NCBI RefSeq assembly: GCF_003334405.1
Contig: NZ_QOWM01000061.1
DNA length: 604 nt
Reading direction: 5' to 3' (one strand)
DNA from: Escherichia coli
GTDB lineage: Bacteria > Pseudomonadota > Gammaproteobacteria > Enterobacterales > Enterobacteriaceae
Every line of letters begins with the position of its first letter. The first letter of the stretch is position 1. Below the pieces are notes generated by a model. It saw nothing but the letters and a program-made list of their open reading frames with translations. It made no database searches and was not told the DNA's origin. The position numbers were made by a program, and so were the translations under genes. Positions 126 through 603 of the stretch are shown here, piece by piece.

Positions 126-142
126 TGGTGGGTCGTGCAGGA
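126..142 (-). other. Orphan 17-nt copy of the tRNA-Lys 3' terminus (T-stem 3' half, acceptor 3' half, ACCA)
   Basis: The plus-strand string tggtgggtcgtgcagga is identical to the first 17 nt of each tRNA-Lys at 2, 224 and 528. Similarity to the tRNA stops abruptly after this 17-mer, where the sequence continues tgactcgc instead of ttcgaacc. Confidence 0.85.
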
Positions 143-168
143 TGACTCGCTTCGCTCGCCCTACGGGC

Positions 169-184
169 CGTTGCTGGCGCAACG
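169..184 (-). other. Predicted short GC-rich hairpin (6-bp stem, 4-nt loop)
   Basis: Plus strand cgttgc (169-174), loop tggc (175-178), gcaacg (179-184) form a perfect inverted repeat. Confidence 0.35.
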
Positions 185-197
185 TTATCCTTCACGC

Positions 198-220
198 TTA
201 ACATCTGAGTTTGATGTTAA
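198..220 (-). other. Predicted RNA hairpin in the tRNA-Lys 3' trailer (8-bp stem, 7-nt loop)
   Basis: Plus strand ttaacatc (198-205), loop tgagttt (206-212), gatgttaa (213-220) form a perfect inverted repeat. In transcript sense this is CCA-GUU-UUAACAUC-AAACUCA-GAUGUUAA, starting 3 nt after the CCA. No U-tract follows, so it is not an intrinsic terminator. Confidence 0.5.
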
Positions 221-223
221 AAC

Positions 224-299
224 TGGTGGGTCGTGCAGGATTCGAACCTGCGACCAATTGATTAAAAGTCAACTGCTCTACCAACTGAGCTAACGACCC
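224..299 (-). tRNA. lysY: tRNA-Lys, anticodon UUU, 76 nt with encoded 3' CCA
   Basis: Identical base for base to the tRNA-Lys copies at 528-603 and 2-77. Its 5' end lies 3 nt downstream (in transcript sense) of the tRNA-Val 3' CCA. The paralog name is inferred from position. Confidence 0.97.
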
Positions 300-302
300 G
301 AG

Positions 303-378
303 TGGTGGGTGATGACGGGATCGAACCGCCGACCCCCTCCTTGTAAGGGAGGTGCTCTCCCAGCTGAGCTAATCACCC
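303..378 (-). tRNA. valZ: tRNA-Val, anticodon UAC, 76 nt with encoded 3' CCA
   Basis: Reverse complement reads GGGTGATTAGCTCAGCTGGGAGAGCACCTCCCTTACAAGGAGGGGGTCGGCGGTTCGATCCCGTCATCACCCACCA, with anticodon stem CCTCC/GGAGG, loop CUUACAA and T-loop TTCGAT. It matches E. coli-type tRNA-Val(UAC) as I recall it. The paralog name is inferred from the flanking gaps of 149 nt and 3 nt. Confidence 0.96.
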
Positions 379-429
379 GATACTGCGCTGGATACTACAA
401 ACTACTTCCACCGAACCCACCGTCATTAG

Positions 430-446
430 TGGTGGGTCGTGCAGGA
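430..446 (-). other. Orphan 17-nt copy of the tRNA-Lys 3' terminus (T-stem 3' half, acceptor 3' half, ACCA)
   Basis: Exact 17-mer tggtgggtcgtgcagga, followed by the same non-tRNA sequence as at 143 onward. Confidence 0.85.
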
Positions 447-472
447 TGACTCGCTTCGCTCGCCCTACGGGC

Positions 473-488
473 CGTTGCTGACGCAACG
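473..488 (-). other. Predicted short GC-rich hairpin (6-bp stem, 4-nt loop)
   Basis: Same stem as 169-184 (cgttgc / gcaacg) with loop tgac; the single difference from copy A is in the loop (a481 versus g177). Confidence 0.35.
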
Positions 489-501
489 TTATCCTACACG
501 C

Positions 502-524
502 TTAACATCTGTCTTCGATGTTAA
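502..524 (-). other. Predicted RNA hairpin in the tRNA-Lys 3' trailer (8-bp stem, 7-nt loop)
   Basis: Same stem as 198-220 (ttaacatc / gatgttaa), but the loop is tgtcttc and differs at 3 of 7 positions. The stem is unchanged. Confidence 0.5.
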
Positions 525-527
525 AAC

Positions 528-603
528 TGGTGGGTCGTGCAGGATTCGAACCTGCGACCAATTGATTAAAAGTCAACTGCTCTACCAACTGAGCTAACGA
601 CCC
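528..603 (-). tRNA. lysW: tRNA-Lys, anticodon UUU, 76 nt with encoded 3' CCA
   Basis: Reverse complement reads GGGTCGTTAGCTCAGTTGGTAGAGCAGTTGACTTTTAATCAATTGGTCGCAGGTTCGAATCCTGCACGACCCACCA, which matches enterobacterial tRNA-Lys(UUU) as I recall it, with a 7-bp acceptor stem, anticodon loop CUUUUAA and T-loop TTCGAAT. The paralog name is inferred from the 149-nt gap to the downstream tRNA-Val and is less certain than the tRNA call. Confidence 0.97.

Follow-up and report, generated by a model that had tools for sequence, protein, structure and literature searches.

The 604-nt stretch of Escherichia coli DNA analysed here, taken from contig NZ_QOWM01000061.1 and referred to as the window, shows 100% identity to its E. 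coli K-12 counterpart and is matched in all 5,426 complete E. coli genomes. By their operon position in strain MG1655, the tRNA genes lying in the window are lysW, valZ, lysY and lysZ, members of the lysT operon, which comprises seven tRNA genes. The lysW-valZ and lysY-lysZ spacers each host a 98-nt module, followed in transcript sense by the leader of the next tRNA. The two modules are Lys-type members of the family of tRNA-linked repeats (TLRs), listed in Rfam as RtT (RF00391). The family is already known, and its finding here is a re-discovery, in itself of low interest.

Segments 126-223 and 430-527 align without gaps and are identical at 93 of 98 positions, as reported in the initial annotation. 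Mismatches fall at the position pairs 177/481, 192/496, 208/512, 209/513 and 212/516, and identity of at least 93/98 has a probability of about 3e-42 to arise by chance. Because all four tRNA genes are on the minus strand, the modules follow tRNA-Lys in transcript sense, and each starts, in keeping with the same annotation, at the first base after the CCA of lysW or lysY. Leaders 78-125 and 379-429 had been described as unrelated, and 10% of 2000 shuffles score as well as or better than their alignment; the two differ because they precede different tRNAs, valZ and lysZ. The similarity does not stop at the end of the modules. It extends past positions 223 and 527 through tRNA-Lys (126-300 versus 430-604, 175 nt, 97%) and, outside the window, further spans tRNA-Val and part of the Val leader.

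The RF00391 covariance model matches the copies at 430-527 and 126-223 with 54.9 and 54.4 bits, respectively, the gathering score being 45. Five matches, one behind each tRNA-Lys, are found in the full operon. The hallmark of TLRs is a 3' tract of 18-19 bp repeating exactly the 3' terminus of whichever tRNA or rRNA gene precedes them (PMC8144298). Plus-strand tracts 126-143 and 430-447 (TGGTGGGTCGTGCAGGAT) are identical to the starts of the tRNA-Lys genes at 2-19, 224-241 and 528-545. Read as RNA, each module terminates in 18 nt (ATCCTGCACGACCCACCA) that reproduce the tRNA-Lys 3' end exactly. An element with such a tail trails every one of the five tRNA-Lys genes in the operon, and the match is 18/18 in all five copies. 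The 178-bp repeats of the tyrT-tyrV locus, the type members of the family, give four RF00391 matches of 133-138 bits; their tail reproduces the final 19 nt of tRNA-Tyr. The family core CGTTGC..GCAACGGCCCG.AGGGCGA is common to the window modules, to the tyrT repeats and to TLRs located after tRNA-Arg. Both modules conform to TLRs in operon position, tail identity, RF00391 score, and presence of the core and of the closing helix described below. The initial annotation had overlooked the copy of the tRNA 3' end, the presence of the element behind five tRNA-Lys genes and the membership in the TLR/RtT family. TLRs were first described in 1978 (Egan & Landy) and catalogued by Rudd in 1999. K-12 hosts 22 of them at ten loci, one to five per locus (PMC8144298, crediting Rudd 1999), and no function is known for any (PMC8144298). 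Because five RF00391 matches are found in it, the lysT operon is presumably the five-TLR locus of the K-12 catalogue.

The cmscan hits span 126-292 and 430-596 (minus strand), reaching 69 nt into the tRNA-Lys genes. These extents were rejected as limits of the element, which is in fact the 98-nt spacer module: cmscan spreads the 5' half of the model over the tRNA body, at the price of a 44-nt insertion and several non-pairs. The score accordingly depends on the 3' ~70 nt of the module. The misplacement occurs because the window copies are a short form, devoid of the part to which the 5' half of the model corresponds. Database coordinates of these RF00391 hits overstate the size of the element. 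In the RtT model, the 5' half (AAGGUUCGA...) resembles a T-arm and is placed by cmscan on the anticodon and T-arm region of the tRNA, which suggests that the long tyrT-type TLR harbours a degenerate tRNA T-arm copy of its own. As to existing annotations, PGAP attaches the label "RtT sRNA" (small RNA) to the fifth TLR only (locus L001 3342-3467, annotation of NZ_CP032667.1), with the remark "processed from tyrT transcript", which is wrong for the lysT operon. The four inter-tRNA TLRs, both window copies included, are unannotated, and a correct labelling of these spacers would be of value.

Each module is predicted to form, on its own, a 5' hairpin and a compact junction of several hairpins, the latter closed by pairing of the CGUG(A/U)AGGAU tract with the first 10 nt of the tail (AUCCUGCACG). 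The end of the tail, ACCCACCA, is left unpaired. Fold z-scores are -4.9 for the 430-527 copy and -3.5 for the 126-223 copy, and 0/200 shuffles are as stable. Neither leader has a stable fold (z-scores in Table 1). All five differences between the copies are located in loops or at the closing-helix site which is U.G in 430-527 and an A.G mismatch in 126-223 (P = 0.007); three of the five are in the loop of the 5' hairpin.

For a comparison of the fold, 80 distinct Lys-type sequences were aligned; they come from about 50 species and include decayed copies. Paired cells are 97% of the total in the alignment, versus 27-47% in slid controls, and reach 97.8% in the closing helix. Compensatory double changes were found in 18 cells and involve five pairs. 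In hairpin 1, C-G is changed to U-A, G-C to A-U and U-A to C-G; in hairpin 3, G-C is changed to A-U, or the pair is lost. The covariation score is reached by 0/500 shuffles, the counts being uncorrected for phylogeny. The 10 cells scored as unpaired at pair 47/52 are an alignment artefact, due to wrong gap placement by MAFFT in the 71-nt hairpin-3 variant. The strand and tail forming the closing helix follow the host tRNA, being CGUGAAGGAU/AUCCUGCACG in Lys, GGGGAAGGAU/AUCCUUCCCC in Tyr and GGGAGGAU/AUCCUCCC in Arg elements, in agreement with the outer helix in the RtT consensus structure of Rfam.

Other ways of looking at the module were considered. Mimicry of RNase P determinants by the closing helix and a 3' ACC overhang was dropped, as CACCACCA, the overhang in Tyr-type elements, does not keep the register of a discriminator-CCA. 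A tRNA-like cloverleaf was discarded as well: the Rfam tRNA model gives no hit in the module, and the resemblance is loose only. It is scarcely credible that the module encodes a small protein, similarly to tpr, a protamine-like protein annotated inside the tyrT repeat, within rttR. An ATG open reading frame (ORF) of 54 codons does run from 204 to 40 (minus strand), from the 5' hairpin through the module, but it enters the lysZ tRNA gene and has no ATG counterpart in the other window copy. B-type TLRs lack the hairpin supplying the ATG, and well-conserved copies have cores of either 71 or 73 nt, owing to 2-nt indels in hairpin 3 that would shift the frame. The coding hypothesis was rejected on the ORF context and on these indels.

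Features identified in the window, including the sub-parts of the two modules, are listed in Table 1.

Table 1. Features of the 604-nt window and anatomy of the two Lys-type TLRs
Feature	Position	Strand	Support or remark
tRNA-Lys(UUU) lysW	528-603	minus	ARAGORN; Rfam tRNA 79.2 bits; MG1655 operon position
tRNA-Val(UAC) valZ	303-378	minus	ARAGORN, Rfam, MG1655 operon position
tRNA-Lys(UUU) lysY	224-299	minus	ARAGORN, Rfam, MG1655 operon position
tRNA-Lys(UUU) lysZ	2-77	minus	ARAGORN, Rfam, MG1655 operon position
Lys-type TLR / RtT copy, lysW-valZ spacer, 98 nt	430-527	minus	RF00391 54.9 bits; tail; fold
Lys-type TLR / RtT copy, lysY-lysZ spacer, 98 nt	126-223	minus	RF00391 54.4 bits; tail; fold
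valZ 5' leader, 51 nt	379-429	minus	precedes tRNA-Val; fold z = -0.3
lysZ 5' leader, 48 nt	78-125	minus	precedes tRNA-Lys; fold z = -0.6
Copy 430-527: 18-nt tail ATCCTGCACGACCCACCA	430-447	minus	exact tRNA-Lys 3'-end copy; first 10 nt = closing helix 3' strand
Copy 430-527: closing helix 5' strand CGUGUAGGAU	491-500	minus	complementary to tail; predicted folds
Copy 430-527: 5' hairpin UUUAACAUC-N7-GAUGUUAAG (A-type 5' part)	501-525	minus	predicted folds
Copy 430-527: core hairpins	453-488	minus	compensatory changes in hairpins 1 and 3
Hairpin 1 CGUUGC-N4-GCAACG	473-488	minus	
Hairpin 2 GCCC-GUA-GGGC	462-472	minus	
Hairpin 3 GC-GAA-GC	453-459	minus	
Copy 126-223: tail	126-143	minus	
Copy 126-223: closing helix 5' strand	187-196	minus	
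Copy 126-223: 5' hairpin	197-221	minus	
Copy 126-223: core hairpins	149-184	minus	

Antisense to the tRNA genes, sub-threshold Rfam matches to the plastid untranslated region families RF04354 and RF04351 were found at 4-77, 226-299, 305-378 and 530-603 (plus strand). These are almost certainly spurious, and due to tRNA-like sequence. A motif of the valZ leader, at 415-421 (ACCCACC on the plus strand, GGUGGGU in the transcript) within GGUGGGUUCGGUGG, is the complement of ACCCACC(A), present in the TLR tail and in the tRNA-Lys 3' end. It is conserved in Kluyvera, and TLR-free E. coli strains retain it. B-type TLRs, located after lysT and lysZ, have instead a GGUGG upstream, which pairs with CCACC in predicted folds.

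Rates of change were compared at 80 cpoB-linked loci from about 50 enterobacterial species, including Salmonella, Klebsiella, Enterobacter, Citrobacter and Kluyvera, Yersinia not being among them. Mean pairwise identity across genera is 0.87-0.94 in the TLR core, 0.94-0.98 in the tail and 0.70-0.77 in the 5' part. Leaders in the same spacers are 0.60-0.67 identical, with 11-38% gaps, and the four-fold sites of cpoB 0.55. The 37 nt that were not used in module detection are still 0.79-0.90 identical. The core and leader figures uphold the suggestion, made in the initial annotation, that modules are "kept similar by selection", and the module-versus-leader comparison of rates proposed therein did not reveal equal divergence. 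Because leaders share the spacer with the modules, conversion or horizontal replacement would hit both equally. As judged from sequence comparison, the difference points to purifying selection on the module, and the similarity is explained by constraint on an RNA fold rather than by recent duplication.

The window copies are part of a larger tandem repeat. The unit is not made of tRNA-Lys and its trailer, as initially proposed. It measures 304 bp (279/308 aligned columns are identical in K-12), and takes in tRNA-Val and tRNA-Lys, separated by a spacer of 2-3 nt, with the 3' part of the Val leader ahead of them and the TLR behind. The 3' 22 nt of the valZ leader are homologous to the valT leader, located outside the window. 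The seven-gene order with a valZ-type leader (GGTGGGTTCGG...) is found also in Kluyvera and Pseudocitrobacter, and the 304-bp duplication must therefore be old. This age tells against the view that the 95% identity results from recent duplication and/or gene conversion alone, in spacer DNA that is neutral. Such a view, which we hold to be most improbable, may draw on the location of the copies within the tandem duplication, on the identity of A-type copies, which is 0.93-0.94 within a genome and 0.89-0.92 between orthologues of different genera, and on the fact that hairpin-3 variants are often common to the copies of one genome. It is largely refuted by the gap between leaders (60-67% identical) and core (87-94%) in spite of equal exposure to conversion and transfer; substitutions, moreover, shun stems or are compensated. 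Homogenisation with the tRNA copies, also envisaged at first, is applicable to the 18-nt tail only. The within-genome copies being just slightly closer than orthologues, some homogenisation is possible, but is not needed. The two copies are alike for two reasons, the old 304-bp duplication and the slow evolution of the TLR core, in which changes are in loops or compensated.

The lysZ leader deserves a separate mention. A divergent allele (compare 78-125 with L003 4919-4966) is present in some E. coli, for example strain E69 (ATTTTAATATTGGCATCAAGTAAAAAATC...). About 23% of genomes have no megablast match to the K-12 TLR-plus-leader junction, and the matches found are spread over identity bands of 90-95%, 95-99% and at least 99%. 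Because of the E69 allele, of the unmatched genomes and of the spread of the bands, the leader is to be regarded as unusually polymorphic within E. coli.

TLRs are not found at all sites. A survey of 256 tRNA-Lys 3' flanks from 81 loci shows a TLR whose tail is intact in 113, a decayed TLR in 19 and none in 124, and 8/57 complete operons of other species are without any TLR. Empty sites are precise, the tRNA CCA being joined straight to the leader. In E. coli E69 (L003) the TLR is missing at both window sites. The 48-nt lysZ leader is located directly behind tRNA-Lys in this strain and in L091, and the 51-nt valZ leader is similarly placed in TLR-free strains. E. coli O157:H7 Z1615 (L090) has six tRNA genes, one tRNA-Lys fewer, and its sole TLR is the lysY-lysZ copy. 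In E. coli FDAARGOS_1268 (L091) the set of seven tRNAs is complete, TLRs are entirely missing, and the spacers measure 35, 2, 51, 3, 48 and 33 nt; the valZ leader is identical to that of K-12, and the other leaders differ at only a few positions. Around the precise empty sites of these three strains, leaders resemble those of K-12. Thirty evenly sampled E. coli genomes were scored by E-value and number of pieces: 13 have the lysW-valZ TLR, 16 precisely lack it, and 1 is otherwise arranged. The count obtained at 80% coverage (4,070/5,426) overestimates occupancy of this site, as a neighbouring TLR piece is joined to a leader piece. The lysY-lysZ junction was found in 4,058 of the 5,426 genomes, and 1,131 (~21%) have no blastn match to the Lys TLR. 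Individual TLR copies are dispensable. Decayed TLRs, located after the first or second tRNA-Lys in L052, L058, L067, L070 and L081, carry substitutions or indels in the core, the tail and the complementary strand.

TLR copies have also been reshuffled, since one type precedes different downstream sequences: A-type TLRs are found in front of at least four kinds, namely Lys leader 1, Val leaders, a terminator and others. Downstream of lysQ (L001 3312-3503), a terminator is followed by a 120-nt long-form TLR, the tail and an exact second copy of the terminator. A near-identical 156-nt unit is found in another operon, that of valU, which it closes behind lysV (L084 4330-4485), and a collapsed form with a single terminator in the E. 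coli loci L004, L090 and L091.

The precise empty sites could recall excision by an integrase acting in trans, if the TLR derived from an element with site-specific integration, of which it would be a relic or a miniature version. The geometry is att-like, as a tRNA 3' end, an insert and an 18-19-nt direct repeat running from T-loop to CCA follow each other, and TLRs form tandem arrays at tyrT. We regard this origin as very unlikely. The same core is found with Lys, Tyr, Arg and 5S tails, which would require several integrase specificities, and the insert, of about 80 nt, has no coding capacity. Genuine carriage of TLRs by phages or plasmids was not found in a blastn search of 50,697 phage and 72,556 plasmid records, where hits correspond only to chromosomal contigs or to megabase-sized, mislabelled "plasmids". 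Deletion between the 18-nt direct repeats would give a precise loss with no enzyme involved, and the complementarity of the 5' strand to the tail is a sign that selection acts on the RNA.

Taken together, the data are probably best explained by viewing the modules as Lys-type TLRs with a constrained, yet dispensable fold, which hides a decoy tRNA 3' end. The lysT operon is transcribed into one primary transcript of ~1100 nt, long spacers included, which is processed 3' to 5' by RNase P, long trailers being removed exonucleolytically (PMC4176162). The property under selection would be the self-contained fold. By this, the decoy 3' end would be sequestered, and plausibly prevented from mispairing with the acceptor strands of neighbouring tRNAs. 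The tail may reuse the 3'-end determinant of the tRNA, and trimming or release of the spacer would then occur at a defined CCA. In the tyrT operon, the end of the annotated rttR coincides with the CCA of the tail, and reuse of the CCA end has likewise been proposed for RrB. Precise loss could stem from the two 18-nt direct repeats, through slippage or recombination between them, and the identical tRNA-Lys body and tail may serve as recombination flanks in moving TLRs from one tRNA-Lys gene to another.

The picture is paradoxical. The core is under purifying selection across Enterobacteriaceae and the helix tracks the host tRNA, yet there are E. coli operons free of TLRs. One tentative answer, which we rate as possible but rather doubtful, is that TLRs are self-perpetuating passengers of stable-RNA genes, copied in or deleted by using the tRNA body and the tail as homology arms. 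Purifying selection would then mainly keep the fold hiding the decoy 3' end, making the passenger harmless. Such behaviour, if true, would explain cross-genus conservation together with full dispensability. Alternatively, TLRs may have a conserved function that is required conditionally. Natural TLR-free strains make it testable whether TLRs have a role in tRNA maturation or are tolerated passengers.

A different benefit would be provided if Lys TLRs, once released from the precursor, worked in trans as sRNAs, by binding a protein or by base-pairing as a sponge. The 5S-linked TLRs rrA, rrB and rrF and the spacer RNA 3'ETS-leuZ, treated below, would serve as precedents, and the copies would be kept alike by selection for this activity. 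Stems and junction are conserved across genera far above leaders and synonymous sites, and Lys, Arg, Tyr and 5S elements all retain one core. Loops, the usual sites of interaction, are however the most variable parts, and FDAARGOS_1268, the 8/57 operons and the ~21% of E. coli genomes mentioned above do without Lys TLRs. RrB binds Hfq and CsrA in vitro (PMC8144298), but the 19 TLRs of tRNA operons score <0.01 for predicted CsrA binding. RtT-family RNAs have been seen on Northern blots in Actinobacillus (PMC4986893), and the end of rttR at the CCA of the tail would suit a released RNA; spacer probes, on the other side, led to no report of a small stable species (PMC4176162), and the sole published phenotype, a role of rtT in the stringent response, has been withdrawn. 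On balance, we consider a trans-acting role unlikely.

Several points weigh against the preferred reading, namely that of a constrained and dispensable fold hiding a decoy 3' end. Modules were gathered by sequence similarity, which inflates the measured conservation. The 19 decayed copies show that constraint is not universal and may be lost at individual sites, and TLR-free strains that the benefit, if any, is small or limited to certain conditions. Modest covariation is seen among Lys-type elements, in which the closing helix is near-invariant, and support for this helix comes from three tRNA families, that is, from few independent events. True homology to the tyrT element is limited to the 3' ~70 nt of the module, as the 5' half of the RtT model falls on the tRNA body with the 44-nt insertion. 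Finally, few intermediates were detected in the wild type with spacer probes (PMC4176162).

The closest relatives of the window modules are the 178-bp repeats of tyrT-tyrV, which give rise to rtT/RttR RNA, the rtT species being released as a 171-nt RNA. Both are located 3' of a tRNA within an operon, end in a tail of 18-19 nt, are present in multiple copies per locus, and have in common the core CGTTGC..GCAACGGCCCGAAGGGCGA..GAGT.ATCC and the closing helix formed by strand and tail. The window copies are in contrast short (98 nt), and feature a different 5' hairpin in place of the ~42-nt T-arm-like 5' half; their tail and complementary strand are specific to tRNA-Lys. In the serV-argV-argY-argZ-argQ operon, next to csrA (L088, minus strand), TLRs are found at 2152-2284, 2425-2559 and 2840-2973. 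These follow argV, argZ and argQ, but not argY, and combine the Lys-type core GGATAACGTTGC..GCAACGGCCCGAAGGGCGAG with an Arg-specific tail of 18-19 nt and its complementary strand.

The 5S-linked TLRs rrA, rrB and rrF of rrnA, rrnB and rrnD (Stenum et al. 2021, PMC8144298) similarly carry an 18-nt copy of the upstream 3' end, and are part of the transcript of a stable-RNA operon. The core sequence AACGTTGCGAAGCAACGGCCCGGAGGG is seen downstream of rrfB. These elements differ from the window copies because they are located between two terminators, feature GGA motifs and bind Hfq and CsrA in vitro, whereas TLRs of tRNA operons score <0.01 in the CsrA predictor. 3'ETS-leuZ, annotated in L087, is also a by-product of tRNA operon processing, and TLRs could similarly have an activity of their own. 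Lalaouna and colleagues are said to have described it, in 2015, as an sRNA sponge. TLRs and 3'ETS-leuZ have no sequence similarity, and the latter is a single-copy trailer devoid of a copy of the tRNA 3' end.

In the attL and attR sites of elements residing in tRNA 3' ends, a direct repeat spanning from T-loop to CCA flanks an insert placed after the tRNA, as in TLRs. The TLR insert, unlike such elements, is about 80 nt long and noncoding, is common to different tRNAs and to 5S rRNA, and is absent from the phages and plasmids searched. Similarly to TLRs, ERIC/IRU and REP/BIME are short, structured and transcribed enterobacterial repeats, conserved across genera and variably present at orthologous sites. 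They are palindromic units interspersed between protein-coding genes, whereas TLRs are tied to stable-RNA genes, from which they carry a copy of the host 3' end.

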